Shown: positions 987 through 61,144 of the stretch, in pieces
How the letters are laid out: every line of letters begins with the position of its first letter
Numbering within the stretch: position 1 is the first letter of the stretch
Virus record (IMG/VR): IMGVR_UViG_3300032046_006283
Location: 9,125-73,124 of that record
DNA length: 64,000 nt
Strand: one strand, 5' to 3'
From: a virus
Translations under genes and position numbers: made by a program
The notes under the pieces: model-generated
Seen by the model: only the letters and a program-made list of their open reading frames with translations
Told to the model about the DNA's origin: nothing
Database searches by the model: none

Positions 987-1046
987 TTAAACCTCCTGGC
1001 TTTTGTTTCTAATTAAATATACAATCTTTTTAATAAATTTCAAAGG

Positions 1047-1964: not shown

Positions 1965-1973
1965 AACTTCTTT

Positions 1974-4900
1974 TTAAATTTGTTTATCTTCTCCTCCAGG
2001 TACACCAGGAGTAACACCAAAATCAGGAAAAATATCTTCTTTGATTGGTTTCTTCTTTTTGAGCAAGTTGCTCTCGCCCCACTGATCTTCACCATAATCT
2101 GGAGCCTCAGATTGTGCTGGTTCTGAAGGATAACTTGGCCCTTGATCTTCTCTTAAAAGTAAAGAAGGGCTATTATAATTTGTATCAGAAGGTTGACCAT
2201 AAAACCCTTCTTTTTGTCTAAGATTTAAAGAACTAACTTTTAAATTTCCTAATTCATCAAGAAACGATTCATCAAAATTTCTAATTAAATAATCTCCATA
2301 AACACCAGATATATGAGCTTCGTGTATTACTTTATCTATCGCAATCATTTTCTCTTGAGGAGTTTTAGCATTTTGTAAAACTTCTACTAAATATTTCTCT
2401 ACTTCTATTTGGTTTTTTAAATCCTCGGAAGGAAATCCAGAAACTTCCCATCCATCCCATTCAATCCACCCTTCTAAAACAATAATAAAACTTGAAATAA
2501 TTTCATCCATTAAAGAAATATCATAAAGACCTTTTGCTTCTTGTTTATATAATCTTATAAGATCTTGTTTTTTAACATATACTACTACATCCTCATATGC
2601 TTTTTTCTTTAAATTTAACGAAGCCATATCAATTCGAGGATCTAAATTATGTTCTACAATTGAATCATTTTTGTCATGCCTTGGAGGATTTGTTCTACGT
2701 AATTTTTTATCTGTTTTATCAATTACTTGTGAATCTTCTGGAATTTCAGAGTCAGATATAATAGCTTTTTTCTTATTTGTTACTTTTTTCTTTTTCGGCC
2801 AAGAATGAGGATAATCTAAAGACTTTAATATAGGATTTGAAACTGAACTTTTTCGAAATAAAAGAGAAGCTTCTTTCATTAAACCTTTAAATGTAGCTAT
2901 TTTTTTCAAATTTAAACTTTTATAGAATGAGAATTCTTCAACTTCTTTAGGAGTATTAGGATTATTATCAGCATAATAACGAACATCTATATCTTTATCT
3001 TTAGTCAACTCTGTTAATGTTTCAGAAGGAGTATTTGGATTCTCTGCAACTCTTGCACGAACACTTGAATATTTATCTTTAGCTAATTCTGCTAATGTTT
3101 CTGAAAGAGTATTTGGATTCTCTGCAACTCTTGCACGAACACTTGAATATTTATCTTTAGCTAATTCTGCTAATGTTTCTGAAAGAGTATTTGGATTCTC
3201 TGCAACTAGAATGTGAACATTTCGGTTTTCATCTTTAGCTAATCCGGCTAAAGTTTCTGGAGAAGTATTTGGATTTTCTGCTACACATTGACGAATTCTC
3301 ACCTTTTTATCTTTTGCTAATTCTGCTAAAATTTCTGGAGGAGTAGAAGGAGCTTCAGCAATTTCTAAGCGATCCCACGCATCTTTCTCTTTTATAATCT
3401 CCAGAGGAGTAAAATATCTTTTAGGAGTTACAACTTCTTCTCCTCTTAATTTTAAATCTTCGGCAACAAGTTTTTGAAGATCCTTCGACAAATAAGACAT
3501 TAGTTGTTCTGGAGTAGCTTGTGCTTTTATTTCTAAAGCATCTGAAAACCATTCTTTGATTCTAGGAAAATCATGAAACATTAAACCAGTGTTATGCTCA
3601 ACGTCATTTATATGATCAATGATAGTTATAAGTTGGTTTGTATCAGAATTATTTTTAAGCTGAATTAAAGATTCAACTATATGACCCCAAGGTTTACCAC
3701 CATATTGAGAATACCATTTTCCTTTATTATATAATTCTTGAAGCTGTTCTAATGTTAAATCTTTAAAAGCAGGTAAATTAAGTTTCTCTTTCCAATATTC
3801 CCATCCTAACAAAGTACCAAACCACTTTTTTCGTTTCAGTGATATTAATGCATCTCGATGTTTTGAGGCTTCTGCATAAACCATTTTTGTAATTAGAGGA
3901 ACATAAACTTCTTTAACTTGATTAACAATCATATCCTTATATTCTTTAGCATAAGAATTTGTTTCTAAATATTGATCAGAAAGTAAAGAAACACCATAAA
4001 AGTCAAAGAAAAGTTGTTTGTCTATTTGAGCTATTTTACGAAGAGATAAAGATGATTTTACACTCATACCACTATAAAACAAAATAGAGTTTGCAAGATA
4101 TTTTTGCAACTCTTTTAAATTATCAATTCTATTTACATTATTTATAATCTTTCGTTTATCGTCTTCATCAATATTAGATGGTTCAACTTTATCTAAAATA
4201 ATTTGTTTTGCTGTTTCTAAATTTGTTGCGCTCCAAACATCTTGAGCAATATCTTCTAAAATAGATTTAACAGGTCCTTTATAAGCAGAATTAATTTTAG
4301 AAATAAAATCTTTCTTTGATTTTGTTACAAATTCAACGTTTTCAGCATAACTTCCCGCGATTATGTTAACACCCTCTGATAATCCTAAAGTGTCTATTAA
4401 ATCTGAAAGATTGTCTGAAAATTCTTCAAATGAACCAGTACCTTCATACCATCTAATATATTGAGGTTTATAAATATTGTATGTGCCTCTTGTTACTAAA
4501 TCAAACTCTCTACCATTTGTAGGTAATCCAATAGTTTCAAACCAATGTATATGAGTCATCATAGGATCTGGATCAAAATAAATTTTTCCTTTATATATAG
4601 CCCAAAGTCCTTCATTTTCTCCAATATAAGAAAATCTTAAACTTCCAACAACTGGTGCCGGAGTTAAAGTAAAATAACTTAAATCTACAAGTAACTGATT
4701 ACGAATTGCCCAAGCAATATCTTCACTACGATCTTTTGAAATATTCAAATCGTCTTCTAAATGCAAAATTAATTCAAATATAAACACTGATCTATCTAAT
4801 TCTTCATAAATTTCTCCAGCATCATTTAAACGTTCGTATTGTTTAACAAAACTTTCTACAAACTCTTTTTCTGTAGGTGTTAACATAACTTTTTTTATTA

Positions 4901-7900
4901 TACCAAATTCATCTTGTGTTTTTTCTTGAGTTTTCTTTTTTAATGAACCGAAATGTGTTAATTTACCTTGTTCTTTCAAAAAAGTGATTAAATTATCCCA
5001 AGCTTCATAACTTTCTTTTTCTTGTTCTTTCGATATTCCTTCTTCAGCTGCTTTATCAAGATAATCTTCATATTCTATTTTTAAATGCATAAGTATTGAA
5101 AAATCAATATGCATCATATTTATAACATTGTCAATAGCAATAATTTGTGAATTAATATCAAAAGCACTATTTAACTCTTCTAAACGTTGTTTCATTTCTT
5201 CTATAACTTGTAATTCACCTGCTTCTTCTCTAACACTTCCCGGATACCTTTTATACCATTTTAAATAATCTTCAAAAAAGAACATTAAATCTCGAACAAC
5301 TTTATTTGTTAAACTATTTAACTTTTTTTCTATTTGTTCAAACTTCTGTATTTCTTTATCTGTTAAAGTTCCTTCATTATATTTTTGTTCCAATTCTCGA
5401 TATTGAATTTCAAGGTCATAAACTGCTTGAAGTTCATTAGGGGTAACAACTGCTTTCTTTCTCATACTTAAAGATGTTTTAAATTCTTTCATTTTTTGAC
5501 TCATTGCAAATTCTATAATAGAAGCTTCATCTTCTGTTAATTGACCAAAATCTAAAGCTGTATTCATTTCTTTTTTGATTTGATTTATTTCCTCTTCATT
5601 TTTTGCTTTATCTATATTTTTAAAAAAAATACGTTCTTTCTTTTTGGAAGATACTTTTGTACCTGTAAAAAGTTTATAAGCTTTTTCAACCCATTCTGAT
5701 ATATTTGTATCTCCCCAATTATTTATCAATTCATAAATAGATGCTTGTATTATATAAGCCGGAATTAATGTGTGTAAAGCCTTAGCCGCTTCAGTTCTAT
5801 GAATACCATCAATTACTTTGTATCTGCCGTTGTCAGGCACCGTGATAATAGGTTTAATTGGTGTTCCTTCCTTGTATAAAGCTACTAATTTTTGTACTTT
5901 TTTAGGATCAGCACCTAATTCATTCCATTCACTCGGATCTATTAAATTTGGATCTAACTCGGAAAGTTCTATATTTATGTCTTTTATTCCTTCTTCTTCA
6001 AGGAATTTATCAATACCTTCTGGAGAATAATCTTCTAATAAATCTTCTTCTCTATTTGCTATTACTTTTCGAAAAGTTAAATTACTAACTTTTAAATTAC
6101 CTAATTCTTCAAAAAAGGAGCTATAAAAATCTTCAACTAAATATTCTCCATATAATCCTGTTTCATGTGCTGTATTTATAGTGTGGTCTATTGCTATCAT
6201 TTTATCTTGTGGTGTTTTAGCTAATTTCAACATATCAATTAAATATTTTTGATCCTTTACTAATTTCGGAGTGCTTTCATATTCAGGATAATATTGAACG
6301 TTTGATGCAATCAAAATTGTTAAAATTCTTATAAATTCTGAAATAATTTCATCCATTAATTCTTCATCATATATACCTTTAACTTCTTGCTTATATAATT
6401 TTTTTAAATCCTGAGTTGTTATACTTGATGTTGGATATTCCTCAGGCACTTCTATTTTATAAAAATCTTTAAATTCTCTTTTTAATTTATCAGCAAAAAC
6501 CATTTCTTTTATATCTGTTTCAAAAGTTAAATAACTTTCTTTTTTCAAAACTTCTTTTTTACATTCATCACAAATTCCATGACTTATATATGGTAAATAT
6601 TTAGAATACTCTTCATTAGTTAAATGCTTAATAATATGTCTTGTACTTCTATCAAATATTCCTTTACACCAAGCGCATATACCATATTTTGAATAATCTA
6701 AATTTTCTATGTCAATTTCTTTAGTTTCTTCTTGCGGAACTTTTTCCATAGGAAGGTCTTTCTGCATATCAGATCTCATATTTAAACTACCAATTTTTAA
6801 ATTACCTAATTCTTCAAAAAAAGTTTCATCAGAATCTGTTAAAGTCTCTCCATATGTTCCAGAAGCGTGAGCAGTATGTATTACTTGATCAATAGCAATC
6901 ATTTTTTCTTGAAGTGTTTTTGCTTCTTCTAGAATCCTTATTAATTTTTTTGTTTGTTTTTCTTGTTCTGGATCGTACCACTTATTAAATTCCTCTAACA
7001 AATAAATAAACTTTGAAACAATTTCATTTAACAATTTTTCATCATATATACCTTTAGCTTCTTGTGTATATAATCTTATTAATTCTTGTTTTGTAACTAA
7101 AGAAGATGCAATTCTATTAAGAAAAGTTTCTAAATCTTCTTCTTCTTGAGCTTTTCTTTTCATATTTAAACTACCAAAAGGTTTTGTAACGGGTCTTTGG
7201 AAACTTTTCCAAACTTCTTTTCCAAGTTCTTTCCAAGTAGGAAATTTTTTCTTTTCTTTTGGTTCTGGTTCACCAAACTCTTCAACTGGAATAGGAATCT
7301 CTTCTTCTGGTTCTATATCTAATTCAAATGTTAAAGGTTTTGTTTCTTTCTCTTCTAAAGGTTTTTCAATAGGTTTTTTAACTTCTACAGGTTCTTCTTT
7401 TTCAATTATAGGTTCTTTCTTTAGCATCTCAACTTTAGGAACTTCTTTAACTTCTTCATGTTTTGTCATTCTTATTTCATCTGGTAAAAAAGGAGAAGTA
7501 AAACCTACTGTAAATACAGTAGCAATATTTCTAGAAACATTTGTCAACTCTGTAATTTTTACATCATAAGAACCATCTGCATTTTTCTTCTTTATAATCC
7601 CTTTTCCTTTTAAAGTACCTCCTGGACCTTTTCTTGCAGCTCCAAAAAATCTGGTAGTATCAAAAACAACCTCATCACCTACATTGAATTCTTTTCTTTC
7701 TGCAGCAACTTTATTTTGAGCATTTTTCTTAAAAATTTGAGAAATAGGTGAAAAAAATTCTTCGCTTTGTACTGGAAATTCATTAAATCGAAGTTTAAGT
7801 TGTTGTGGAATTATAAATTGTTCTTCAATATTTTTTCGTATAGTTTCTTTTAAACCTTTTTCATGTTTAAATTCAAAAGGTTTTTCAAAAGCTTTATATT

Positions 7901-9269
7901 TATCTTTTTGTTCTTCTTTATCCTTTTCTTTTTTTAGTTTTAATTTATCCATAAATGTAGGTTCTGAAAATACTATATCCATTTGTACAAACTCTTGAAT
8001 TAAAGGTTCGTTAGCTTCTTTCTTTCTCATATTCAAACTCGCTGTCATTTGAGAAGCTGGATTATCTTCCCATAACCAAGGACTTCTTTCTATCCTTTCA
8101 AGAGAAGGAAATACTATATTATAACCTTGATCCGCTTCTCTATCTTCCCACCTATCTTCTCCTTGTTGATAAGTATGCCAAGATTGATGTTCTCCTTGAA
8201 TTTCATCTAAAGAATTGTCTGGAATAGGTTCAGAAACGGTGGATGCTTGTCTCCTAATTACTTTAAAACTTTTTAATCCTCTAAATACTTTAGCAATGAT
8301 ACCTCTTTGAATAACTTCTTTAGCTAATTCTATTTCTTTTTCAGTTACATCTGTCTTCTTACCTCTTGCTATATCCCATATTTCATCTGGACTGTATTTG
8401 TTCAAGAGGTCGGAGTAAGGAACATCTATTATATTTGGAATTTTTTCTTTTAAAGTTTCTTCTTCTTTCGTAATCAAAAGATCTTTTAATATTTCTTTTT
8501 CTTTTTTAGAAGGTTCTCTTAATCCTAAAGATTCAGCCATAGCTTCTTCAATTGCTTTTAATACTAAATCTTTTGAAAATGCTTCTTGTAAACCATATTC
8601 TTCCATAACATAAATTTCCCAATTTTTAATAAAAGATTGTGGAAATTTATTTGAAAAATCTGCAATTAATCCATTTATAAAATGCATACTTACATTTTTC
8701 TTTTTCGCTATATGATTTACAAAATAATAAACATCTATTCGAGAAACAATTTCAGAACCATATTTATTAAGTTCCTTCAAAATTTCATCCACATATAATG
8801 ACCAATCTTGAGCTTCTTTTTTCATATTTAAACTTCCACATATTCCAGGACCATAAGAAGGAGATCCTGGAGTTGAATCATATTCCATTGGATTAGAAAC
8901 ATTTGGATCTATGTTAAATATATTACCTTGCTCATCTGGATAATTATGAAAAGGAAATCTTAGTTTTGGTTTTTTTGGACCTTTAGGATATTCATCAGAC
9001 TTTCCTGGTTCATAAAAATTTTCTTGGAGTGTTTCAGCATCTGCTTTTTTAAAATTTAAAGAAGCGACTTTTGAAATATAAGGTAAAATTGCATTCCTTA
9101 ATTCATTTGGTGATTCAAACCAAGTACCTTGGAGTTTATCCAATATATATTTTTCATAATAAGGATAATTTGGATGTCCCGGAGGAACACCATATTCACC
9201 TAAAAGTTGAGAAACCAAATTAGGATCTGCAACAATCCAATTTGGTTCCCTTCCAAATCGCAATTTCAT
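1974..9269 (-). CDS. 2431-aa mosaic protein, putative virion-internal polyprotein (repeated helical domain, ParB-like domain, LRV repeats, Zn-binding module)
   Basis: Long ORF downstream of the terminase; ~12 S-L-x-(x)-K/R-K-x-A linkers; internal duplications; function inferred. Confidence 0.6.
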   Translation of the reverse strand: MKLRFGREPNWIVADPNLVSQLLGEYGVPPGHPNYPYYEKYILDKLQGTWFESPNELRNAILPYISKVASLNFKKADAETLQENFYEPGKSDEYPKGPKKPKLRFPFHNYPDEQGNIFNIDPNVSNPMEYDSTPGSPSYGPGICGSLNMKKEAQDWSLYVDEILKELNKYGSEIVSRIDVYYFVNHIAKKKNVSMHFINGLIADFSNKFPQSFIKNWEIYVMEEYGLQEAFSKDLVLKAIEEAMAESLGLREPSKKEKEILKDLLITKEEETLKEKIPNIIDVPYSDLLNKYSPDEIWDIARGKKTDVTEKEIELAKEVIQRGIIAKVFRGLKSFKVIRRQASTVSEPIPDNSLDEIQGEHQSWHTYQQGEDRWEDREADQGYNIVFPSLERIERSPWLWEDNPASQMTASLNMRKKEANEPLIQEFVQMDIVFSEPTFMDKLKLKKEKDKEEQKDKYKAFEKPFEFKHEKGLKETIRKNIEEQFIIPQQLKLRFNEFPVQSEEFFSPISQIFKKNAQNKVAAERKEFNVGDEVVFDTTRFFGAARKGPGGTLKGKGIIKKKNADGSYDVKITELTNVSRNIATVFTVGFTSPFLPDEIRMTKHEEVKEVPKVEMLKKEPIIEKEEPVEVKKPIEKPLEEKETKPLTFELDIEPEEEIPIPVEEFGEPEPKEKKKFPTWKELGKEVWKSFQRPVTKPFGSLNMKRKAQEEEDLETFLNRIASSLVTKQELIRLYTQEAKGIYDEKLLNEIVSKFIYLLEEFNKWYDPEQEKQTKKLIRILEEAKTLQEKMIAIDQVIHTAHASGTYGETLTDSDETFFEELGNLKIGSLNMRSDMQKDLPMEKVPQEETKEIDIENLDYSKYGICAWCKGIFDRSTRHIIKHLTNEEYSKYLPYISHGICDECKKEVLKKESYLTFETDIKEMVFADKLKREFKDFYKIEVPEEYPTSSITTQDLKKLYKQEVKGIYDEELMDEIISEFIRILTILIASNVQYYPEYESTPKLVKDQKYLIDMLKLAKTPQDKMIAIDHTINTAHETGLYGEYLVEDFYSSFFEELGNLKVSNLTFRKVIANREEDLLEDYSPEGIDKFLEEEGIKDINIELSELDPNLIDPSEWNELGADPKKVQKLVALYKEGTPIKPIITVPDNGRYKVIDGIHRTEAAKALHTLIPAYIIQASIYELINNWGDTNISEWVEKAYKLFTGTKVSSKKKERIFFKNIDKAKNEEEINQIKKEMNTALDFGQLTEDEASIIEFAMSQKMKEFKTSLSMRKKAVVTPNELQAVYDLEIQYRELEQKYNEGTLTDKEIQKFEQIEKKLNSLTNKVVRDLMFFFEDYLKWYKRYPGSVREEAGELQVIEEMKQRLEELNSAFDINSQIIAIDNVINMMHIDFSILMHLKIEYEDYLDKAAEEGISKEQEKESYEAWDNLITFLKEQGKLTHFGSLKKKTQEKTQDEFGIIKKVMLTPTEKEFVESFVKQYERLNDAGEIYEELDRSVFIFELILHLEDDLNISKDRSEDIAWAIRNQLLVDLSYFTLTPAPVVGSLRFSYIGENEGLWAIYKGKIYFDPDPMMTHIHWFETIGLPTNGREFDLVTRGTYNIYKPQYIRWYEGTGSFEEFSDNLSDLIDTLGLSEGVNIIAGSYAENVEFVTKSKKDFISKINSAYKGPVKSILEDIAQDVWSATNLETAKQIILDKVEPSNIDEDDKRKIINNVNRIDNLKELQKYLANSILFYSGMSVKSSLSLRKIAQIDKQLFFDFYGVSLLSDQYLETNSYAKEYKDMIVNQVKEVYVPLITKMVYAEASKHRDALISLKRKKWFGTLLGWEYWKEKLNLPAFKDLTLEQLQELYNKGKWYSQYGGKPWGHIVESLIQLKNNSDTNQLITIIDHINDVEHNTGLMFHDFPRIKEWFSDALEIKAQATPEQLMSYLSKDLQKLVAEDLKLRGEEVVTPKRYFTPLEIIKEKDAWDRLEIAEAPSTPPEILAELAKDKKVRIRQCVAENPNTSPETLAGLAKDENRNVHILVAENPNTLSETLAELAKDKYSSVRARVAENPNTLSETLAELAKDKYSSVRARVAENPNTPSETLTELTKDKDIDVRYYADNNPNTPKEVEEFSFYKSLNLKKIATFKGLMKEASLLFRKSSVSNPILKSLDYPHSWPKKKKVTNKKKAIISDSEIPEDSQVIDKTDKKLRRTNPPRHDKNDSIVEHNLDPRIDMASLNLKKKAYEDVVVYVKKQDLIRLYKQEAKGLYDISLMDEIISSFIIVLEGWIEWDGWEVSGFPSEDLKNQIEVEKYLVEVLQNAKTPQEKMIAIDKVIHEAHISGVYGDYLIRNFDESFLDELGNLKVSSLNLRQKEGFYGQPSDTNYNSPSLLLREDQGPSYPSEPAQSEAPDYGEDQWGESNLLKKKKPIKEDIFPDFGVTPGVPGGEDKQI
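2945..3365 (-). repeat. Leucine-rich-variant (LRV/HEAT-like) 26-aa repeats; exact 78-bp tandem duplication at ~3030-3207
   Basis: NPNTxxETLAELAKD...VRxxVAE repeated ~5 times; the DNA unit gtatttggattctctgcaact recurs at 3031, 3109 and 3187. Confidence 0.9.
5740..5980 (-). other. ParB/Sulfiredoxin-like domain within the 2431-aa protein
   Basis: PIKPIITV...YKVIDGIHRTEAAKAL matches the ParB-N IDGxHR motif. Confidence 0.75.
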
Positions 9270-9271
9270 TT

Positions 9272-9463
9272 TTAGTTCTCCTTTGTGTATCTCACTTTCT
9301 TTTTATACTCATAACTTACTATCTTATTTTGATGCACAGTAATTAATGTTTCACTATACGGAGAACTAGACAAATCTTTTATTATATCCTTAATTTTCTT
9401 CAAATCCTCTTCAGATACTTGTTGTAATATAGTAGCAATTTCAGTTATAATCTTTTCTTTCAT
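9272..9463 (-). CDS. Small YezD/DUF2292-like protein
   Basis: YSETLITVHQNKIVSYEYKKKVR resembles the DUF2292 pattern YGxxxIxVHxGxVVxIExxEKxR. Confidence 0.55.
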   Translation of the reverse strand: MKEKIITEIATILQQVSEEDLKKIKDIIKDLSSSPYSETLITVHQNKIVSYEYKKKVRYTKEN

Positions 9464-9464
9464 T

Positions 9465-10112: not shown

Positions 10113-10155
10113 AACTCCTCCTTTACTTTTATTTAAAATTTTTAATTTCTAAATT

Positions 10156-10395
10156 TTAGAAGCGTGGAATAAAAGTTGTAGATAATAATACCACAGAATG
10201 TAAAACTTCTGGAGCTAAAAAGAAACATCTAACAGAATCTTTAGCTATATCCCAAGCATATAATTTCCCATCTCTTAGCTCAAGAGGTTCAATTGTACGA
10301 GTTGAGCGCTCATTTTTTTGATTTGTGTAGTCAATTTCTAACATTTGATGGTTTTGAATTGCGATATAAATATCTTCAACTGCCATAATTACCAT
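10156..10395 (-). CDS. Standalone WYL-domain protein
   Basis: LEIDYTN...RTIEPLEL...LYAWDIAKDSVRCF is a WYL pattern. Confidence 0.8.
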   Translation of the reverse strand: MVIMAVEDIYIAIQNHQMLEIDYTNQKNERSTRTIEPLELRDGKLYAWDIAKDSVRCFFLAPEVLHSVVLLSTTFIPRF

Positions 10396-13843: not shown

Positions 13844-13849
13844 AATTTT

Positions 13850-14002: not shown

Positions 14003-14010
14003 ACTTACAC

Positions 14011-15429: not shown

Positions 15430-16544
15430 TTGACTTTCTCCTTTCTTGTTCCAAGAAAATCAATCAATGTTTGAAAAATACCATCTTTATCTTTCAATTT
15501 ACTTATTAAATAATTATCAAAACTTCCTGTTAAATCTTCTAACTTTTCTGAAAACCTTTTGTTTTCATAGTATGAGGGTTCTCCAACTTCTGCATAACAA
15601 AAAAGATTTATATTAGGTAATATATCTTTTTCCAAATATCCTTTTGAATCTTTATCATCTTCTCCACCAAAAGTTTCTCCATCAGAAAAATGAAAAACAT
15701 AAACATTTACTGTTTCTGGAGGAAATCTTTTTCTTAAAATTTCATTACATAATTTATAAGCATCAGAAAAATAAGTACCGCCGCCAGTAGATAAAGAAAA
15801 AAATTGTTCTCGATTAACTTCTTTAGCATTTGTATCATGCACAATATATACAACATCCACTTGTTTATAATGAACCTTTATCCAAATATCTATCCAAAAA
15901 ATTGTTTGTCGTATAAGTTGTTTTAATTCATCATCAATAGATCCAGAAATATCTTGAATTAAAACTATAACTGCTTGATTTATAGGTTCCTCAATAGTCT
16001 TCCAAGTTTTATAACGTTTATCCTTTTTTACTGGAATTATTTTTGGATCTTTAAAATCAAAAGTTCCTTCTACAATACTTCGTTTTAATGCTTCTTTAAA
16101 TGTCCTTTTAGAATGTTTTAATGATTCAGGCCCAATACGCCCTATTCCTGTAAACTTATCTTTTATTACTTTAACATTTTTACGTCCTTTAGGTTTTAAT
16201 CGAGGTAAATTCAATTCCTTAGCTAAGATATTTGCTAATTCTTCAAAAGTAATATCTACTTCAATTGCATGATCTCCAGGAGAACTGCCTGCTTTTTTTT
16301 CACCTGTATTATCTGGGCTCATATCTAAAGGATCTCCAATATTTCCTTCTCCGGCACCTACACCACCTGTATTTTTCCTTCCATATTTAAAATGAGGAAT
16401 ATCAATCTGAGGAACTGGTATTTTAATAACTTTTGATCCTTCTTTTCCAACAAAATGTTCTGTTTGAATAAACTTTCGAATATTTGATTTTATATATCCT
16501 TCAACCAATTTTTTAAATCTAGACCTATCTCTTGTAATATTCAT
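15426..16544 (-). CDS. yeaH: YeaH/YhbH (DUF444) vWA-like protein
   Basis: IPxPxIDIPHFKYG, GVGAGEG, DISGS, GGGTYFS, HFSDGE; operon position. Confidence 0.9.
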   Translation of the reverse strand: MNITRDRSRFKKLVEGYIKSNIRKFIQTEHFVGKEGSKVIKIPVPQIDIPHFKYGRKNTGGVGAGEGNIGDPLDMSPDNTGEKKAGSSPGDHAIEVDITFEELANILAKELNLPRLKPKGRKNVKVIKDKFTGIGRIGPESLKHSKRTFKEALKRSIVEGTFDFKDPKIIPVKKDKRYKTWKTIEEPINQAVIVLIQDISGSIDDELKQLIRQTIFWIDIWIKVHYKQVDVVYIVHDTNAKEVNREQFFSLSTGGGTYFSDAYKLCNEILRKRFPPETVNVYVFHFSDGETFGGEDDKDSKGYLEKDILPNINLFCYAEVGEPSYYENKRFSEKLEDLTGSFDNYLISKLKDKDGIFQTLIDFLGTRKEKVN

Positions 16545-18571
16545 TATTTTTCTTCCCGCGCTATAATACTTCCTACATATGCTAGTACATTTTCAGCACA
16601 TTCATCACAATATCCATAAACTTCTTTTAACCTTTTCTTTAGTGCATTTAATTTCTCAAGTGTATCATCATCTTTTACTGTTGAAACAGCACCAGAAAGT
16701 TTAATATTGTGTTTCTGGTCCTTAAATAATTTCAACTCCAAAGCACGGTACAATCTTTCATTTGCCTTATAATCAAATGTTTTCTTTTCAATAGTTAAAC
16801 TTGCAATGTAGTTCATAATTTGAGTTCTAAATTCATCCTTTCGAGATTCAGATATATCAATTTCTTCCTCAATAGATCTCATTAACCTTTCATCGGGTTC
16901 CTCATATTGTTTAGTAAATTCATTTCTAACCTTTTCTTTCTGAATATACGCTCTAACATTTTCTATATAACTATTGCAAAGGCGTGCTAAAGCACTATCA
17001 TCTGCACACATTGCACGCTGTATTTCATTTTTTACAATTTCTGTATATTCCTCTTTGACAAGAGCAATAATTTCTTTGTACCTTTTTTTCACATCAATAG
17101 AAGAAATTAATGAATAGTGATCTAAGCCTTCTTCAAATTCTCTCAAAACTAAAAATGGATTTATACAATTTCCAGATTCTACATGCACTAAAGCATTTGA
17201 TATTTTATCTTGAACAAAACGAGGAGAAATTCCTTCCATACCTTCACCAATAGATTCATCTTTAATTTCATCTAAAGCTTCTTCATTAAAATCTGGAATT
17301 GTTTTTCCATTATATAACTTCATTTTATTTACTAAAGTCAAAGAAGCTTTCTTAGGATCTTTCAAACGTGTTAAAATAGCAAACATCGCAGCCACTTCTA
17401 ATGTATGCGGGGCCATATGTTTACCTACAATATTTTTCGGAGAAAAATCTTTTTCATAAATTTTAATTTCATTATTCAATTTTAAACAATATGGAATATC
17501 AATCTTTATTGTTCTATCTCTCAAAGCTTCCATATATTCATTAGATTGTAATTTTTTAAATTCAGCTTGATTTGTGTGACCAATTATTACTAAATCAATA
17601 TCAGTCTGTGCAAAATTCTTTGACTTAATTTTATGTTCCTGACTTGCACAAAGCAAATCATATAAAAAAGCAACATCTAATTTAAGAATTTCTATAAACT
17701 CTATAATACCTCTATTAGAAATGTTAAATTCTCCAGTAAAACTAAAAGCTCTTGGATCGGAATCAGAACCATAAATTGCTAACTTTCTATAATTAACATC
17801 TCCTGTTAATTCTGTACTATCCTGATTCTTTTCATCTTTCGGTTGAAACGTCCCTATTCCTATTCTATCTTTTTCAGAAAATGTAATTCGTTTTACAGTT
17901 ATATGTTCTAAAACTTTCGCCCAATCTCCTTTATAAAAATCCATCAAATTTTTAAATATATATCTACATGGAGGACATAATTCACTTTCTGCCATCAATT
18001 TTTTATCTGGAAACTTATCATAAAACTTTTGACGTAATTCTAAAGGAATCAAATGAACAGGGTCTTCATTCATTGGACATCTAAATTCTTTATCAGGACC
18101 AAAAATATTCTCTGTTTCTGGAGTTGATTTCCAACCAAAAGTAAAAATAGCTCCTGCATCAGTTTTAGAATATTCTTCAAGACCTTTTTTCAAAAGACGG
18201 ACAATAGTTGACTTAGAAGATCCTACAGGTCCATGCAACAAAATAATTCGTTTCTCAGGACCATAACCTAAAGAAGCTGAACGAAACAAATTTACTAAAT
18301 TCATCAAAGACTCTTCTAAATCATAAATTGCGTCCTTTCCATTATTAAGGGGGTCACTAAAAAATTTATAAATTATTACTCTTTTCTTACCAATTGTTTT
18401 TTCTTCGGTACCATAAAACAAAATCATATTATACAATCTACTAAAAGCTGTTTGTATCAAATTTGGATTCTCTTCAAGTTTTTCAATATAGTCTTTAAAG
18501 GAACCACGCCAGTGCAACTTTTTATAAAGCTCAGGATTCTGCGCTTCCTTCAGTTTTTCTACTATATCCAT
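16544..18571 (-). CDS. prkA: PrkA/YeaG AAA+ serine kinase family protein
   Basis: LLHGPVGSSKS, GIGTFQPKDEKNQD, SDPRAF, NRGIIEFIE, GHTN, EALRDR, GISPR. Confidence 0.93.
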   Translation of the reverse strand: MDIVEKLKEAQNPELYKKLHWRGSFKDYIEKLEENPNLIQTAFSRLYNMILFYGTEEKTIGKKRVIIYKFFSDPLNNGKDAIYDLEESLMNLVNLFRSASLGYGPEKRIILLHGPVGSSKSTIVRLLKKGLEEYSKTDAGAIFTFGWKSTPETENIFGPDKEFRCPMNEDPVHLIPLELRQKFYDKFPDKKLMAESELCPPCRYIFKNLMDFYKGDWAKVLEHITVKRITFSEKDRIGIGTFQPKDEKNQDSTELTGDVNYRKLAIYGSDSDPRAFSFTGEFNISNRGIIEFIEILKLDVAFLYDLLCASQEHKIKSKNFAQTDIDLVIIGHTNQAEFKKLQSNEYMEALRDRTIKIDIPYCLKLNNEIKIYEKDFSPKNIVGKHMAPHTLEVAAMFAILTRLKDPKKASLTLVNKMKLYNGKTIPDFNEEALDEIKDESIGEGMEGISPRFVQDKISNALVHVESGNCINPFLVLREFEEGLDHYSLISSIDVKKRYKEIIALVKEEYTEIVKNEIQRAMCADDSALARLCNSYIENVRAYIQKEKVRNEFTKQYEEPDERLMRSIEEEIDISESRKDEFRTQIMNYIASLTIEKKTFDYKANERLYRALELKLFKDQKHNIKLSGAVSTVKDDDTLEKLNALKKRLKEVYGYCDECAENVLAYVGSIIAREEK

Positions 18572-18621
18572 ATAAAGCCTCCTAAAAGGTTTTATGTTAC
18601 TTTACTTAAAAATAATTCTTT

Positions 18622-21600
18622 TTACAAAGCTAATTCTAATTGATTTCCCTCTTCTACAATCTCACTTAAAGATTTAATATATGCCCATAATCCTGATCCT
18701 AATTCTCGAATTGCATCAAATACATTAGCTTCTTTTGTAGAACCTTCTCGTTTTGGAAACATAGTAAGAACTCGTTGCTGAACCTCTTCATTCAATGAAC
18801 TCGCTCCACGTTCTGCTTTTTCTAAATAGATCTTTGCATCTTCACCGAATTTTTCCAAAAGCTTTTCCACTCTCCATTTATCCGAAGGTTTAAATTTCTT
18901 TTCTTTTACAGAAGTGTCTAAATACAAGAAAAATTCTCCAAGATCAATTACTTGAGTCTGAGCTTGTTCAACCAAAGAGGAGAGCTTTTCTATTCCTTCT
19001 TGTAATTCAGCGGCCTCTGTTACTGATCCATGTTCTTCCTGAATCTTTCTAATTTGTTCTTCTACTTTTGCCCTTGCTTCATCTACAAGAGATTTAATTT
19101 CGCCTAAGCGTTGTTTGTGATTTTGAACTTCATGAAAAGTTTTCTGCATTTCAGGAGTAGCAACAGGAGCTTCTTTTACTTCTTCTGATGAAGGTTCGCC
19201 GTGGGGCTTTGTTTTAAGTTCTTTAAACTCCGTTTTAGGTTTTTCTTTAACATCAACTTCTTCTAGTGCAAATCTTAATGAAGCTTCTTTTTCTAATAAA
19301 TACTCACCACCTAAAATATCTAATTCTTCTTTATATTTGTCCAAAGTAGGCCGAAAATGAACTTGCGTTTGAGGACTTAAAGTTCCAAACACACTTTCAA
19401 CTTCTTCTATCCACTTAGAAATTCTTTTTGCATTTTTTGCAGGATCTAAAAGTTTAACTTTCCCTGAATCCCAACCAGATAATACATCTAAGCCTCTATT
19501 TATTTTATCTAATATTTCTTGTATTGTTTCTTCTGAAACACTTTCTTTCTTCATAACTGAAAGTTTAGAAGCTTCTTTTTCTGTTTCCTCTTCTGGTTCG
19601 TATTCAACAGCAGGTAATACAACTTCTTCTAACTTCTCTGCGTGTTCTGTTTCATCCTCTGCCATATCTTTAAGAGCTTTTTCTGCTTTAGGACATTCAA
19701 CTTCTTTGGCCATATCATTATACATTTCAGCGCCTTCTTGTTCTTCTTCAATATGCTCCTCTACCATTTTTTCAGAAAGATCAGCTGTTTTCTTTATTGA
19801 AGCTTCTTTTTCTTCTGTTTCTTCTAAATTAGTAATTAAATCATCAATATCCTTTCTATACCATTTCTCCATTAAACTTAAATGATTTTTAAAATAATCT
19901 AACACTGTCTGAGCAGCTCTTTCAAGAGCATCATAATTTCTTTCGTCTGTAAATTCTTCTAAATCTGAAGCAACTTTGTTCTTCACATTTTGAGGAACAC
20001 TTCTAGACCTTGTGACTGCTTTAACAACATCAATAGCAAAATCTTCATCTGTAAGAACATAATCAGCAAAAATTTCAAATCTTTCTTCTGGAGTTTTTTC
20101 AAAAAGATCAGCTGTTTTTTCTTTTAAAAAAGCATAAGCAGCCTTTTCAAGATCAACCAAAGAATATAACATTTTTCTTCCATCTTCCAAAAGAACTTCA
20201 TAAGCAGTATATACTATTCCCGTTCTTGGTGATTTATAATTTGGAATAATATCAACAACGCTTCCTTTTAAACCTGCAATAGTTTTTACCTCATCACCTA
20301 CTGTAAAACTTTTTTCAGCCTTTTTTCGTATTTCTTGAACTATTTCGTTAGAAGATTTACCTTTTGTTGAATCAAAATCTTTTTTCTGAACTATTTTTTC
20401 CAAATTTTCTTTCTTTGCATGCACTACAGGATAGTGTTGATCTTTAAGTTTCTTGTCAATAATTTCTTCTAACTCTTTTCTGGTCATACGAGAAACTTCT
20501 GAAGTAATTTTAGTTAAATCAAAATCTAAAGGAATTTGGCCTGCTCTTACATAATCTTCAACAAGCATTCTTAAACGCTCTATTGGAATTTGTTTTCCTG
20601 TTTCGTCGGTTTCATGATAACCAGTAGGTTCAGCTTTTTTCTTTATTGAAGCTTCTTTTCCAAACTTTGCTTCTTCGTAATCTTCTTCTTTAAATTCAAA
20701 TCCTGGATGTTTTTCTTCTATAATCTTTTTAATTTCATTAAATGATTTTCCTTCTTTCACGCCTTCAGTTACAATTTCATAAATAAAAGGTGCAATGCCT
20801 TCTGCTGGAGAAGCTTTTTTAACCTTTTTATTTGAAGAAGCTTTCTTAGAAAAAACAAAAGTATCTTTATCAGCATGACCACAACCTATTAACTGACCTC
20901 CACAAATAGGGCATCTTTCAATATCGCAACCAAAATGATGAATGTTACCTAGTTTATTTACTATATTACAATCATGGCAGCGTTCATTCACATCGAAATA
21001 TGATGTATCTCTAAGATATCCTTTTCCTTTCAAATTAATATATTCTTTTGTACAGGTTTCCGTTTTAGGATCTGTCATTTCTAACATACACTCTTCACAT
21101 TTCACTGCTCTTTTTTGTAACGAAGCTGTTTTATGTCTATCTCCTTTTCTATGCCAAATACCTCCAGCAACATAGTTCATACATTTATCATGACTCCAAC
21201 CTTTTTCTCGCATACAGGTTTGAACCATACTTTCAAGTTCTTCTTTTTCTGGAGCGGTTTTGGTTAAAGAAGCTGCTTTTTCCATTTCTTCTATTCTTTC
21301 ACTTCCACAATAAGGACATTTAAATTCATTTTCTACCCATTCTTCATGAGTCATAGTTTCTCCACAGTCTAAACATAGGCCCAGTCTATATTCTTCTTCT
21401 TCTTCCTCTGATTCTTCTTCCGCAGCAGATTTAGTAGTAGTAGGTATTATAGAAGAACCTCCTCTAAACATTTTTTGAACAGCTCTATCTTCTTCAGGAA
21501 GAATTCCTTGATTTGATTCTTCATAAGGAACACCAAAATCTGGATCTACATCTGTTTGTTTTGCAACACTATAATCTGGATCTGGATCAGTAAAAGGAAC

Positions 21601-22860
21601 TAAAGTCTTTTCGTCTCTTAAACTCTTTTTCACTAATTTATCAATTTTTTCATCAACTGAAGCCATAGGAGCTGTAGGAGCTACCATAGGTCCTCCAGGT
21701 AAAGTTTCTTGAGTAACACCTCCACCAGGAGTAGCTTGAATGTTTAAATCAGCACTTGGAATAGGAGCAGTTTTCATTCCTGTTTCATCTGTTAATATAG
21801 CATCAATTCCTGTAGTAGAATCAATAGTATAAATCTTTCCTTGATATTCTACCTGCTGTCCCGGAACAGGAACACCAGCAGCTGTTTTCTTTTTAGTAGA
21901 AGCAATCTTTTTCACCTGAATTTGAGAATATTCTTCTTTTTCTCCATCCTCAAATTGAACAACAAAGTTTCCACTCTCAGGACTTATATAAGTAATCACT
22001 GCAAGTTCTCCATGTCTTTCAGTTCCTAGTGAATCGACCTGAATTGTTTCTCCTTCGTAATATAATTCCTCAGCTGTTTTCTTTTTAGCAACAATTTCTC
22101 TAAATCTTGTAAAATCTTTTTCACGAAAATGCATTTCAGGAACAATAAAGTTTGGTTCAGGAGCTCCAAAAACTTTACCAGATGTAAAACTCTGAACGCC
22201 TTCTTTTGTAAAAGGAATTTCACTACCTTGTAAAGTCTTAAAAATCTTTGGAAGCATAACTTCTCCAGAAGGAGTAATACCTGCAACAGCAACCACCCTA
22301 AATCTAACATCATTATTATCTACTGACTCTATAGTATATTCTGCATATTTAACATTTTGAGGCCCACCTTCATAAATTGCTTCTCTCATTCCTCTTTGAA
22401 ACTTTAATTGAGGATTAAACATACCAACAGAAACTGCAAACTTTCCTAATATATGTGCAACCCTTTCTAAAATTGCACGATCCACCCACTGACTAGGAAC
22501 ATAGCCAGGGACTATATTTTGATTTAAGTATAAATCAGCATTCCTATTTATTTTACTTATATTTGTAGCTACTTTAATTATACGATCTTTAATAAGAACA
22601 GAGCTACAAACAGGACAAGAAACAAAACTTTGGCCATTACGAACAGCTTCGATAAATTGTTTTCGTAATGAAGAAGCACCAAAAGATTTTTTACATCCTT
22701 GGCATGCATAAGATAAAACAACTTCTTTCATATTATCTTTAACATATTTTTTTGCTTCTTCTTTCTTTTGAGATTGTTTACTTGCAATCTTTTTTAATCT
22801 TTCAGCTTTAAACCACTTTCGGGTTCCTTTATTTCCTTTTTGTTCTTTAGGTATCAACAT
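18622..22860 (-). CDS. 1412-aa mosaic protein, putative virion polyprotein (zinc ribbons, SH3/KOW-like modules, ferritin-like segment, C-terminal coiled coil)
   Basis: Many K-x-A(S) linkers (KEASIKKTA, KTASLQKRA, KAASLTKTA) separating unrelated small domains. Confidence 0.6.
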   Translation of the reverse strand: MLIPKEQKGNKGTRKWFKAERLKKIASKQSQKKEEAKKYVKDNMKEVVLSYACQGCKKSFGASSLRKQFIEAVRNGQSFVSCPVCSSVLIKDRIIKVATNISKINRNADLYLNQNIVPGYVPSQWVDRAILERVAHILGKFAVSVGMFNPQLKFQRGMREAIYEGGPQNVKYAEYTIESVDNNDVRFRVVAVAGITPSGEVMLPKIFKTLQGSEIPFTKEGVQSFTSGKVFGAPEPNFIVPEMHFREKDFTRFREIVAKKKTAEELYYEGETIQVDSLGTERHGELAVITYISPESGNFVVQFEDGEKEEYSQIQVKKIASTKKKTAAGVPVPGQQVEYQGKIYTIDSTTGIDAILTDETGMKTAPIPSADLNIQATPGGGVTQETLPGGPMVAPTAPMASVDEKIDKLVKKSLRDEKTLVPFTDPDPDYSVAKQTDVDPDFGVPYEESNQGILPEEDRAVQKMFRGGSSIIPTTTKSAAEEESEEEEEEYRLGLCLDCGETMTHEEWVENEFKCPYCGSERIEEMEKAASLTKTAPEKEELESMVQTCMREKGWSHDKCMNYVAGGIWHRKGDRHKTASLQKRAVKCEECMLEMTDPKTETCTKEYINLKGKGYLRDTSYFDVNERCHDCNIVNKLGNIHHFGCDIERCPICGGQLIGCGHADKDTFVFSKKASSNKKVKKASPAEGIAPFIYEIVTEGVKEGKSFNEIKKIIEEKHPGFEFKEEDYEEAKFGKEASIKKKAEPTGYHETDETGKQIPIERLRMLVEDYVRAGQIPLDFDLTKITSEVSRMTRKELEEIIDKKLKDQHYPVVHAKKENLEKIVQKKDFDSTKGKSSNEIVQEIRKKAEKSFTVGDEVKTIAGLKGSVVDIIPNYKSPRTGIVYTAYEVLLEDGRKMLYSLVDLEKAAYAFLKEKTADLFEKTPEERFEIFADYVLTDEDFAIDVVKAVTRSRSVPQNVKNKVASDLEEFTDERNYDALERAAQTVLDYFKNHLSLMEKWYRKDIDDLITNLEETEEKEASIKKTADLSEKMVEEHIEEEQEGAEMYNDMAKEVECPKAEKALKDMAEDETEHAEKLEEVVLPAVEYEPEEETEKEASKLSVMKKESVSEETIQEILDKINRGLDVLSGWDSGKVKLLDPAKNAKRISKWIEEVESVFGTLSPQTQVHFRPTLDKYKEELDILGGEYLLEKEASLRFALEEVDVKEKPKTEFKELKTKPHGEPSSEEVKEAPVATPEMQKTFHEVQNHKQRLGEIKSLVDEARAKVEEQIRKIQEEHGSVTEAAELQEGIEKLSSLVEQAQTQVIDLGEFFLYLDTSVKEKKFKPSDKWRVEKLLEKFGEDAKIYLEKAERGASSLNEEVQQRVLTMFPKREGSTKEANVFDAIRELGSGLWAYIKSLSEIVEEGNQLELAL

Positions 22861-22903
22861 TTTAAAACCTCCAATATTTTATATTTATATTTTATTTTCT
22901 TTT

Positions 22904-25138
22904 TTAAAAAACCTCAGGAGACTCAAGATCTGATTCTTCTTCTTCCACTTCTTCTGTTTCCTCTTCTTCTGGTTCTATAGGTTGTTCTGAAGGAGAAACT
23001 TCAGCACCTTTTGGTTCTTCTTCTTCTTTTTTTTCTTCAGTTACTCCTTCTTGATCTCCAAAATTTATACTAAAATCTTTAGTTTCTGGATTTAAAGTAA
23101 TTGTTATTTCTTCAAGTTCTTCCTCTTCAGGTTCTTCTTCTCCATCTAATAATTTTTTAGGCTCTCCAGGTAATTTTGGATGACCTGTTTCTTTTACGGT
23201 CCAATTCATAGGCTGAAGTTTACTTGAACTTCCTGCGCCTCCCCCACCTCTTAACGCTTCCATTCCATCAGCTGTTTTCTTCAAATTCTCTTTTTTCGCT
23301 CTACCATATAATTGTACTACTCGTTTTGCTATTCCAAAAAGATGTTGAAATTCTTTTTCATTTACTAAATATCCATTTTGATCTAACCATTCTCTTAAAG
23401 CTTGTTCAACATGTTTTATCTCATTACCAAGATACCCAAGAGTTTCAAGAAATTTTTCACTCTCTACTAATTCTCTTTCTACTCTAATTAAAGATATTTC
23501 AACTGCTGTTTTTATAGTTGCTTCTTTTATAATACTACTAATTTTTTCATTAATTGCTTCTAATGGAATTTCTTTCTCAATTCCTTCACCTTCTTCTTCC
23601 ATCTTATATAAACGAGTATAATAATCAGGAAGTTCATTAAGATGGTCTAAAGCAATCTTTGCATAATTTGTAGCATTGCCTTCACCAACAACTCCAGAGT
23701 GTTCAATTTCAACATTCATTCCTTTTGTAAATTCATCTAAATTCACGAGCTTCCAATCAACACCTAAAGAATCTCCTATACGTTTTGCTTCATCAGCTGT
23801 AAATATGTTTATAAGATTATCGTGTTCTGCTGTTTTCTTAGAAGCTTCTTTCAATAAAACAATACTATATTCTTCTTCATTATACCATAGTTGCTCGTCT
23901 TCGTTCCCAGATCCTGTAATTTCAATAGTTTCGTGCATATCACCATCATTACCAAGGTATTCATCAACTTGAGCAATTGTTACACTTGGAGCAATAGTAG
24001 TATTCTCTTCTTTATCCATTATTTGAACTTTATCACCAACCTTAAATGAAATCTTCTTTATCGAAGCTTCTTTTTCAACTTCTTCTCCAAGTTCCTTTTC
24101 TATCTCTTCTTCTGTTTCCTCTTCAGGTTTTTCTAAAGATTCTTCAACAGGACTTGATGGAGTATTTAATTCTTTTAAATATTTTAAAGCTTTAGGATTG
24201 TCAAACCACATAATAACATTTTGAGATTTTTTATTTTTTGCAAATTTTAATAAATTTTTTCCTTTTAACCAAGTTTTAATTGCTTCACTATAATTACCAA
24301 CACCTTCATTTTTATCTTTTTCAACTAAAAAATCATATAATTCTTTAGATGTTTCAGGTGTAAGATTAATACCAAATGCATCTAAAACTTGATCGTGTAA
24401 ATCTTCAACATCACTATCAACAAATTGTGCTCTCTTTTTTAAAGAAGCTTTTTCATTTACTCTTTTAGTATAAACAACTTTTTCTAATTGATTTCTATTG
24501 TATGAAGCTTTGCACTTACACTGAATTTTTCCAACAGTCTTCAAACCTTGCAAAGAAATTTCTTTATTACAAACAGAACAAGAAGCAACTGCTCTTATGG
24601 TATTATCTTCAAACCATGAAGAAGGCATATCTTTAAAAATAACTTGAGAACGATCTGGAACAGCAGATCTAACTTCTCCTATCTTCCCATTATATTTTTC
24701 ATAAAGATGACCAAAAGGAACATTTATTTGAACTACTGTTCCTGGAGTATAGGAAATTTTTTTGGAAGAAGTCTTTTCTATTTTTGTTCTTTCTTCAATA
24801 ATTTCCTCTTTTTTCTGTATTGAAGCTTTTACTTGACGTATAATTTTATCATCTTCCCCTGTATAAACAACAACCCAGCGCTCATCTTTACCATTAGCAT
24901 TTTTTATTGTTTCAATAACCCATATACTTCCAGCATCAGCATCTGTTTTCTTTTTATATATATCATAGCCTACTTTCTCAAAATCTTCTTCATTTCCTTT
25001 AAAAAGAATAGCACCTCGTTTTCGTAAAACATTAACTCTTTCATTATATTTTACTAAATTAAGAGCCTTATTAACAAAATTTGGAATTTCTTCCATTTTT
25101 CTTACCTGATTCAAATATGATTTATTTACCATAGTCAA
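22904..25138 (-). CDS. 744-aa mosaic protein, putative virion polyprotein with an embedded DUF5661-like domain
   Basis: KASLKKRA, KEASIKKIS, KEASKKTA and KEATIKTA linkers; GMNVEIEH...AKIALDHLxExPDYYTRL. Confidence 0.6.
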   Translation of the reverse strand: MTMVNKSYLNQVRKMEEIPNFVNKALNLVKYNERVNVLRKRGAILFKGNEEDFEKVGYDIYKKKTDADAGSIWVIETIKNANGKDERWVVVYTGEDDKIIRQVKASIQKKEEIIEERTKIEKTSSKKISYTPGTVVQINVPFGHLYEKYNGKIGEVRSAVPDRSQVIFKDMPSSWFEDNTIRAVASCSVCNKEISLQGLKTVGKIQCKCKASYNRNQLEKVVYTKRVNEKASLKKRAQFVDSDVEDLHDQVLDAFGINLTPETSKELYDFLVEKDKNEGVGNYSEAIKTWLKGKNLLKFAKNKKSQNVIMWFDNPKALKYLKELNTPSSPVEESLEKPEEETEEEIEKELGEEVEKEASIKKISFKVGDKVQIMDKEENTTIAPSVTIAQVDEYLGNDGDMHETIEITGSGNEDEQLWYNEEEYSIVLLKEASKKTAEHDNLINIFTADEAKRIGDSLGVDWKLVNLDEFTKGMNVEIEHSGVVGEGNATNYAKIALDHLNELPDYYTRLYKMEEEGEGIEKEIPLEAINEKISSIIKEATIKTAVEISLIRVERELVESEKFLETLGYLGNEIKHVEQALREWLDQNGYLVNEKEFQHLFGIAKRVVQLYGRAKKENLKKTADGMEALRGGGGAGSSSKLQPMNWTVKETGHPKLPGEPKKLLDGEEEPEEEELEEITITLNPETKDFSINFGDQEGVTEEKKEEEEPKGAEVSPSEQPIEPEEEETEEVEEEESDLESPEVF

Positions 25139-61113: not shown

Positions 61114-61144
61114 TATTCCTCCTAATTATTATACTCACAAAATA

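Follow-up and report, generated by a model that had tools for sequence, protein, structure and literature searches.

A recurrent peptide motif in three large proteins

The 64,000-nucleotide stretch analyzed here (the window; 27-33% G+C) comprises bases 9125-73124 of a single 73,124-bp viral contig (G000, IMGVR_UViG_3300032046_006283). Three large proteins encoded on its minus strand, P0001, P0002, and P0003, carry repeated copies of a short peptide motif, which takes a long form, [S/K/R]-L-[S/N]-[M/L/F]-[R/K]-K-x-[A/S]-(Q), and, in P0002 and P0003, a short form, K-x-A-S-[I/L]-K-K-x-A. The motif is real and clade-specific; its frequency greatly exceeds chance expectation, and its occurrence is restricted to a few proteins. 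An original prediction, made from the DNA alone, had read the three products as polyproteins cut after K-x-A. Every one of the nine strings that it named in P0001 is present where it placed them, as are those that it named in P0002 and P0003 (KAASLTKTA, KTASLQKRA, KEASIKKKA, KEASIKKTA, KASLKKRA, KEASKKTA, and KEATIKTA). P0001 contains 13 copies in total, nine strict and four degenerate (aa 827, 1062, 1441, and 2134), along with a decayed GSLRF near aa 1540. The proteins and their motif copies are as follows, with R denoting a helical domain that occurs three times in P0001.

1974-9269, minus strand: P0001, a 2431-aa modular giant with 13 motif copies, three R domains, a ParB-like segment, LRV repeats, and Cys-rich ribbons
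9039-9065, minus strand: motif ASLNFKKAD, P0001 aa 69; relatives have ASLNFRKTA and ASLSLRKKS at the same place
8811-8837, minus strand: motif GSLNMKKEA, P0001 aa 145
8013-8042, minus strand: motif ASLNMRKKEA, P0001 aa 410
7149-7175, minus strand: motif GSLNMKRKA, P0001 aa 699, immediately ahead of R domain 1
6765-6791, minus strand: degenerate motif GSLNMRSDM, P0001 aa 827, at the end of R domain 1
6057-6086, minus strand: degenerate motif SNLTFRKVIA, P0001 aa 1062, at the end of R domain 2
5451-5477, minus strand: motif TSLSMRKKA, P0001 aa 1265, following the ParB-like module
4923-4949, minus strand: degenerate motif GSLKKKTQE, P0001 aa 1441
4029-4055, minus strand: motif SSLSLRKIA, P0001 aa 1739; the next module is a separate gene in the related contig G002
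2895-2921, minus strand: motif KSLNLKKIA, P0001 aa 2117, following the LRV repeats
2844-2870, minus strand: degenerate motif ASLLFRKSS, P0001 aa 2134
2598-2624, minus strand: motif ASLNLKKKA, P0001 aa 2216, immediately ahead of R domain 3
2208-2234, minus strand: motif SSLNLRQKE, P0001 aa 2346, at the end of R domain 3
18622-22860, minus strand: P0002, 1412 aa, with four strong short-type copies
21253-21276, minus strand: short copy AASLTKTA of P0002
21106-21129, minus strand: short copy TASLQKRA of P0002
20632-20655, minus strand: short copy EASIKKKA of P0002
19783-19806, minus strand: short copy EASIKKTA of P0002
22904-25138, minus strand: P0003, 744 aa, with DUF5661 at aa 451-516
24803-24826, minus strand: short copy of P0003, aa 105
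24428-24448, minus strand: short copy of P0003, aa 231
24047-24067, minus strand: short copy of P0003, aa 358
23828-23845, minus strand: short copy of P0003, aa 432
23273-23293, minus strand: short copy of P0003, aa 616

Using 500 residue shuffles per protein as the background, we found the pattern [AGST]SL[NSQ][FLM][KR] nine times in P0001, relative to a shuffle mean of 0.01 (maximum 1), and not once in the other 91 open reading frames (ORFs) of the contig (18,849 aa). The expression SL.{1,2}[KR][KR].A, which had been suggested as a check on the original prediction, gave six matches in P0001 (0.03 expected) and likewise none in the other ORFs. For [KR].AS, P0002 had 12 matches relative to 0.80 expected, a count reached by 0 of the 500 shuffles, while P0001 had 4 (0.99 expected; 10/500 shuffles reached 4), P0003 had 2 (0.31 expected; 21/500 shuffles reached 2), and the other ORFs together had 6 relative to 6.5 expected. 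Lysine content was 10.9 to 11.2% across all protein groups compared, and the claim that the motif is rare in replication genes that are equally rich in lysine was borne out by the absence of the long-form patterns from those 91 ORFs.

Since these patterns were composed post hoc from the data, a matrix scan of two related viral contigs, found via P0003 and the large terminase subunit (TerL), provided an independent test. G001 is 106,979 bp long (55% complete, 148 ORFs), and G002 is 168,267 bp long (90% complete, 201 ORFs). The 10-residue matrix, built from 12 window copies only, gave 12 matches in G001, all in four large homologues, relative to 0.77 expected, and 27 matches in 10 of the 201 ORFs of G002, relative to 0.87 in shuffles (maximum 3). 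Sixteen of these 27 matches fell in three homologues of the window giants, five in a 1185-aa LRV-repeat protein adjoining the portal, two in a 518-aa tail-adjacent protein, and one each in a 297-aa helical, scaffold-like head-module protein (aa 50) and a 117-aa protein encoded just upstream of TerL (aa 19); the remaining two were borderline. The matrix found no match in the G002 major capsid protein (329 aa, 5251-6240, phrog_2522, E 9e-54), which is without a long N-terminal extension. P0018 carries 13-18 motif copies. A literature search at abstract level, with five of the motif strings included, found no earlier description of the motif.

The consensus was derived from 91 copies in 14 clade proteins, anchored on L-x-[MLFI]-[RK]-[KRTQ]. 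Position -1 was mostly Ser (36), Lys (22), or Arg (11), and position +1 was Ser (34) or Asn (33); position +5 was variable, +6 was Ala in 50 copies and Ser in 13, and +7 was Gln in 25. Across the 13-member P0003 family, the invariant part of the short form was K-A-S or E-K-E-A-S, the invariant residues being V103 K104 A105 S106, A231 K234, K303 Q306, E355 K356 E357, and K621. Codons vary synonymously inside the copies (Ser TCT/AGT/TCA/TCG, Lys AAA/AAG, Ala GCT/GCA/GCG, Leu TTA/TTG/CTT), which implies that the peptide rather than the DNA is conserved and that selection acts at the peptide level. Because of this variation, a DNA-level recombination signal was rejected as the basis of the motif, and the idea that the AAA AAA runs mark a frameshift or slippery site was dropped.

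Motif-like strings, R-L-[A/N]-[I/L]-R-K-[E/D]-M-S-S, also lie ~60 residues from the C terminus of TerL in the window (aa 576) and in G002 (60242-63478, aa 1017). Since ~3.5 such loose matches per genome are expected by chance, these terminase strings may mean nothing.

Modules and their boundaries

Windowed comparison revealed that a ~130-aa helical domain, the R domain, occurs three times in P0001, whereas a whole-protein BLAST self-comparison reported no internal repeats.

6774-7169, minus strand: R domain copy 1, P0001 aa 701-832, a clade-restricted helical domain that ends ...ELGNLKIGSLNMR
6066-6419, minus strand: R domain copy 2, P0001 aa 951-1068
2214-2618, minus strand: R domain copy 3, P0001 aa 2218-2352

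Each of these R domains is flanked by motif copies. P0001 also contains a ParB-like segment at aa 1120-1170 (phrog_1033, E 1.3e-6) and LRV repeats at aa 1969-2093 (E 2.5e-17). The original prediction had described the segments between motifs as unrelated small domains; given the three R domains and the LRV repeats, this does not hold for all of them. Only 20 relatives of the R domain were found among 1.84 billion representative proteins. In its distant homologues, which are joined to methyltransferase-like domains, the motif is missing; this indicates that the motif is not part of the R fold, and the fusions suggest that R may be an accessory domain of methyltransferases. In four of them (P0028, P0032, P0033, and P0035), the fusion partner has the LD(L/I)GC motif resembling that of S-adenosylmethionine (SAM)-dependent methyltransferases.

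The giants of the related contigs are divided and rearranged at motif copies. The giant gene of G001 is split into 1479-aa and 1873-aa ORFs with a four-base overlap, the downstream ORF beginning MTLFMRKKAG where P0019 has SKLNMKKIAG within one protein. The module of P0001 from aa 1740 onwards is a separate gene in G002, where it adjoins tail genes and begins MLYSLSFRKTSQ, the start of P0021; the N terminus of P0030 reads MKNKLGMRKTAQ. P0022 differs from P0026 and P0001 in having, in place of their single motif copy, two copies with an R domain inserted between them, and module order differs among P0001, P0018, and P0019. Motif copies also occupy protein termini. In four proteins a copy directly follows the initiating Met (residues 2-11), and copies lie near the C terminus of P0021, P0023, P0024, and the 1185-aa protein of G002, which begins MKKLNMRKKLG and ends NRLSMRKEGSRE, with its last copy 4 residues short of the stop.

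We quantified this association using the ends of BLAST high-scoring segment pairs (HSPs). HSP ends fell within 10 aa of a motif copy in 87 of 186 cases, relative to the 15.7% expected from length; after clustering, 14 of 54 ends did so (binomial p = 0.036). All 13 P0001 copies had an HSP end within 10 residues. In the P0003 family, 33% of 628 HSP ends lay within 10 residues of a strict copy, relative to 14% for random positions, and motif copies bound all five variable regions of its 13 members. As judged from these comparisons, the motif bounds evolutionary modules that have been shuffled between relatives, and the proposal that new domains are gained by insertion between linkers was upheld, since motif copies are the places where modules have been added, lost, or put in another order among the relatives. 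An AlphaFold2 model of P0003 (13-row alignment) had a mean predicted local distance difference test (pLDDT) score of 44.6, with 487 of 744 residues below 50, and was not used; in this poor model, six of seven motif-like sites fell in low-confidence stretches, relative to ~4.6 expected by chance.

Possible roles of the motif and candidate proteases

TerL is encoded between P0002 and P0001.

10389-12302, minus strand: TerL, large terminase subunit (phrog_2, E 1.4e-19)

Because of this position, we assigned P0001, P0002, and P0003 to the packaging/head region. Since G002 encodes portal, major head protein, and baseplate wedge genes, the clade is myovirus-like, and further motif carriers of G002 lie beside portal and tail genes. 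The carriers thus form a small set of non-homologous proteins of the morphogenesis regions, in which copies occupy N and C termini as well as internal module boundaries. A single short motif on non-homologous head-region proteins is a known signature of prohead-protease substrates. Our tentative reading, to which we assign a probability of roughly 0.4, is that the motif is a recognition signal for maturation cleavage and perhaps also for head targeting. In this reading, an uncultured large phage of the myovirus-like kind encodes P0001, P0002, and P0003 as proteins of the polyvalent type that are probably internal to the virion, each giant being a string of small independent modules with the motif before every module and often also after it. 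During head assembly, a phage protease would bind the motif and cut at or beside it, most plausibly after the small residue of K-x-A, resolving the giants into modules and trimming short leaders from stand-alone proteins; the motif peptide may double as a tag that brings proteins into the prohead, comparable to the T4 capsid-targeting sequence. The products would also be packaged and injected.

A bolder version holds that this clade of large tailed phages encodes much of the injected cargo proteome as motif-delimited polyproteins of a dozen or more small effector modules, which a phage protease would separate at a dedicated 9-residue site as the head matures, exchange at that site letting relatives reshuffle modules freely; this version seems to us somewhat doubtful. 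If true, it would bring the polyprotein logic of RNA viruses and a plug-in rack of effectors into a double-stranded DNA phage. Should the motif be a processing or targeting signal at all, it would supply a simple sequence rule by which internal or ejected proteins could be recognized throughout an uncultured phage clade, along with the limits of each functional unit and the route by which new effector modules are acquired. It would further be a portable tag with which foreign proteins could be loaded into phage heads or released there, and it would extend the polyvalent concept from an in-cis peptidase to a defined trans-acting site.

For the prohead proteases of T4 (gp21) and phiKZ (gp175), the consensus has three residues with Glu in last place, and capsid proteins are among the substrates. 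Such sites often lie in N-terminal propeptides and can recur within one protein. Our motif resembles the substrate sets of such proteases in being a single short consensus common to non-homologous head proteins (10 of 201 ORFs in G002). It differs in being 7-9 residues long, basic and hydrophobic, and present at boundaries in up to 13-18 copies per protein; moreover, known systems cut the capsid protein, whereas that of G002 is motif-free. In SPN3US, an A-X-E motif linked to gp245 is described, in the relevant passages of PMC10052503, for the N-terminal propeptides of non-homologous head and ejection proteins.

Polyvalent proteins (Iyer et al. 2017) are described in passages of PMC5512222 as large multidomain proteins, often with ParB, that are encoded beside virion genes and are proposed to reach the host along with the DNA and to be resolved into functional units by an in-cis zincin-like metallopeptidase. 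Similarly, P0001 unites a ParB-like segment, LRV repeats, three R domains, and Cys-rich ribbons, and P0003 contains DUF5661. The only hallmark domain in common is the ParB-like segment, as no zincin-like metallopeptidase (MPTase), ART, SNF2/DarB helicase-methylase, or virion RNA polymerase was detected in P0001, P0002, or P0003 by Pfam and PHROGs searches at E ≤ 0.01. A further difference is the 9-residue boundary motif, for which those passages of PMC5512222 describe no counterpart in polyvalent proteins. The three giants are best classed with polyvalent or internal-head proteins.

Two protease candidates emerged. In G000, G001, and G002 alike, the giant gene is followed, at a distance of one or two genes, by that of a cytoplasmic 302-aa S1C (HtrA-like) peptidase (genome 7851-8759 in G000; Pfam Trypsin_2, E 2.5e-12). 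Its triad motifs TNYHV, DVALLKL, and GNSGGG contain H52, D111, and S185, which are invariant in 40 sequences, and its model (pLDDT 93.7) best matched DegQ (Foldseek E 3.7e-12), DegP, and DegS among PDB structures. A PDB sequence search with the peptidase returned nothing. The enzyme shares the H/D/S triad and fold of HtrA, DegP, and DegS but is without a signal peptide and gave no PDZ match, its model ending instead in a long K/E-rich C-terminal helix (aa 254-301). Enzymes of the HtrA type have a preference for small aliphatic residues at P1, and a cut after Ala would be in keeping with it. A complex prediction of S1C aa 1-255 with P0001 aa 126-170 gave a score of 0.01 and a mark of 0.32, which is neither support nor counter-evidence.

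The second candidate is a 1444-aa protein encoded between the portal and capsid genes of G002. Its N-terminal domain, which has ~40 stand-alone relatives of 300-350 aa, matched PHROG 18299 ("head maturation protease") with an E of 9.6e-11 over 60 aa, and two Atlas leads (0.90 and 0.89) agree with an S78-like reading; it is plausibly a candidate HK97-type prohead protease. Some homologues of this protease-like domain carry intein/LAGLIDADG Pfam matches. Neither the S1C nor the S78-like candidate is tied to the motif, and the case for the HK97-type enzyme is weak.

Two other gene products were considered as the processing enzyme. An S49 (SppA-like) peptidase, encoded beside the giant gene but outside the window (genome 6694-7587) and likewise in G002, has a lipoprotein-type signal peptide, MNMRKVLCIVCLLFLFLVSC; it is therefore probably exported and unlikely to be active in proheads, and we regard it as an unlikely prohead protease. 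An exported peptidase is unusual for a gene labelled "head maturation protease" in PHROGs. PrkA was rejected, since the PrkA-DUF444-SpoVR trio is missing from both G001 and G002 and so cannot be a conserved partner.

Several observations weigh against cleavage as the role of the motif. A capsid propeptide with the same site, as in T4 and phiKZ, was not seen, the G002 capsid protein being motif-free. Copies at residues 2-11 or 4 residues before the stop (NRLSMRKEGSRE*) are placed such that any single cut position releases almost nothing at one of the two termini, which favors docking. The main arguments against reading the giants purely as polyproteins are these terminal copies and the absence of the motif from the capsid protein. 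With position +5 variable and Ala at +6 in only 50 of 91 copies (Ser in 13), the scissile bond cannot be read from the sequence. On the enzyme side, the S78 assignment is below threshold: Pfam Peptidase_S78 matched 4 of 29 members of the 1444-aa N-terminal family, with a best E of 0.014, and a PDB sequence search with the 1444-aa protein gave a best E of 0.22, while its domain profile matched nothing among PDB sequences. The S1C family is widespread (133 proteins; 402 viral contigs), and in 78 S1C loci outside the clade (of 80 kept; 304,251 aa), where the neighbors are chaperone and nucleotide-metabolism genes, the matrix gave six matches, equivalent to background. Co-distribution of this family with the motif was therefore rejected, and the enzyme is not specifically linked to the motif.

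The same terminal copies would suit an uncleaved docking or targeting tag, in which the motif would bind a head component such as the scaffold, the inner capsid surface, or the portal and thereby recruit the giants, one module after another, together with small stand-alone proteins and tether them within the prohead. The motif may then act in the manner of the T4 capsid-targeting sequence or of encapsulin cargo-loading peptides, with no proteolysis involved. A cut at N-terminal copies in four proteins and at those near C termini would free little, the conserved hydrophobic and basic positions (L, M/L/F, R/K, K) are typical of a binding peptide, the capsid protein itself is motif-free, and no protease is specifically tied to the motif; in addition, the N4 virion RNA polymerase is packaged unprocessed, as stated in passages of PMC5512222. 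One tag per protein would be enough, yet P0001 has 13 copies, P0018 has 13-18, and nearly every boundary is marked. Docking alone is the main rival of our reading, though we consider it unlikely. Alternatively, the motif might be a passive junction, a favored flexible basic linker that travels with shuffled cassettes and is conserved by descent and by its suitability as a linker, with no dedicated reader. Modules have been shuffled, duplicated, and inserted along with one motif copy, and several copies belong to duplicated R domains. Such a linker would hardly explain the motif in the N-terminal regions of small non-modular G002 proteins (117 aa and 297 aa) or directly after Met in four proteins; synonymous codon variation means that DNA microhomology is not conserved, and the retention of L, S/N, M, R/K, and K in at least 91 copies of ~14 proteins exceeds what a generic linker needs. 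A purely passive role is improbable.

A basic DNA-contact element, such as an SPKK-like minor-groove binder for an AT-rich genome, would account for the invariant dibasic core in packaging-region proteins of a genome with 27-33% G+C. Protein recognition is suggested instead by the fixed spacing and by the conservation of Leu and Met/Leu/Phe, and replication proteins equally rich in lysine are without the motif; we give this role, or some other one, little credence. Least probable of all is a site for a host Prp-type protease, which removes the N-terminal extension of L27 and acts on the capsid and scaffold of phage 80alpha. According to passages of PMC9405229, the L27 site is MLxx(D/N)LQ(F/L)F'A(S/H)KK, and changing FF to AA makes L27 uncleavable; passages of PMC5744158 place a Prp site on non-homologous structural proteins of Staphylococcus phage 80alpha. 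The N-terminal copies, M-x-x-L-N-M-R-K-x-A, resemble the L27 site, the short form contains A-S-K-K, and both systems have a 9-15-residue leader with L-N-L at the N terminus, Prp cutting next to Ala (passages of PMC9405229 and PMC5744158). The motif differs in that most copies are internal and the Phe-Phe pair is missing, with R/K-K at those positions in 91 copies. No Peptidase_Prp (PF04327) gene was found in G000, G001, or G002. One bin with a clade contig, G003 (labelled Cloacimonadota), contains no match to Prp, and its L27 is short, beginning MAHKKG without an extension; this host link depends on the binning of a 13-kb contig and is weak.

Other genes of the contig and its relatives

Of the 49 window ORFs with 150 aa or more, 48 lie on the minus strand. 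In transcriptional order, replication and nucleotide-metabolism genes come first, filling the window from 64,000 down to 28,000; they include a DnaB-like helicase, a two-piece primase, a family-A DNA polymerase, a UvsX-like recombinase, an SbcCD-like nuclease, methyltransferases, and QueC. Downstream follow an AAA ATPase, a DUF559 endonuclease, P0003, P0002, the PrkA/DUF444/SpoVR trio, a GIY-YIG homing endonuclease, TerL, a 215-aa ORF, P0001, and a second DUF559 endonuclease. Just beyond the window, genome positions 1-9124 encode an exonuclease, the Trypsin_2 peptidase, the S49 peptidase, an amidase, and a GDP-mannose dehydratase. The contig is rated 33% complete and is without a capsid, portal, or tail gene. 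The closest TerL matches among cultured phages are distant (23-26% identity to Mycobacterium and Microcystis phage terminases), and P0001 gave only two short matches against 50,697 phage records.

TerL is 637 aa long in the window, relative to 1000 aa (L005, 9995-12997) and 1078 aa (L006, 7973-11209) in the relatives, and its matches to them span residues 5-477 and 236-637 only, which suggests inserted elements in the terminase genes of the relatives. The 1066-aa portal protein of G002 has foreign PHROG matches in its middle. Homing-type endonucleases (window 1047-1964, 12286-13095, 25122-25604, and 44466-45227; three DUF559/HNH-like and one GIY-YIG with NUMOD3) flank each large gene, the terminase, and the DNA polymerase, and more occur in the head module of G002.

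The primase is encoded in two separate genes with 26 kb between them (window 56428-57171 and 29783-30481), the zinc-binding N-terminal piece corresponding to positions 10-94 of phrog_6444 and the central piece to positions 201-365. The trio of PrkA (AAA_PrkA and PrkA C), DUF444/YeaH-like, and SpoVR is complete (window 14011-18571, minus strand). Seventeen phage records contain a PrkA homologue, and 11 of these belong to Thermus phages; Thermus phage Lalka27b encodes the trio in the interval that separates its portal/minor head genes from TerL. The head module of G002 (L011) encodes a peptide deformylase with a SEC-C motif and a sigma-70-like factor (13184-13696 and 14523-15329), both located between the portal-adjacent giant and a scaffold-like protein.

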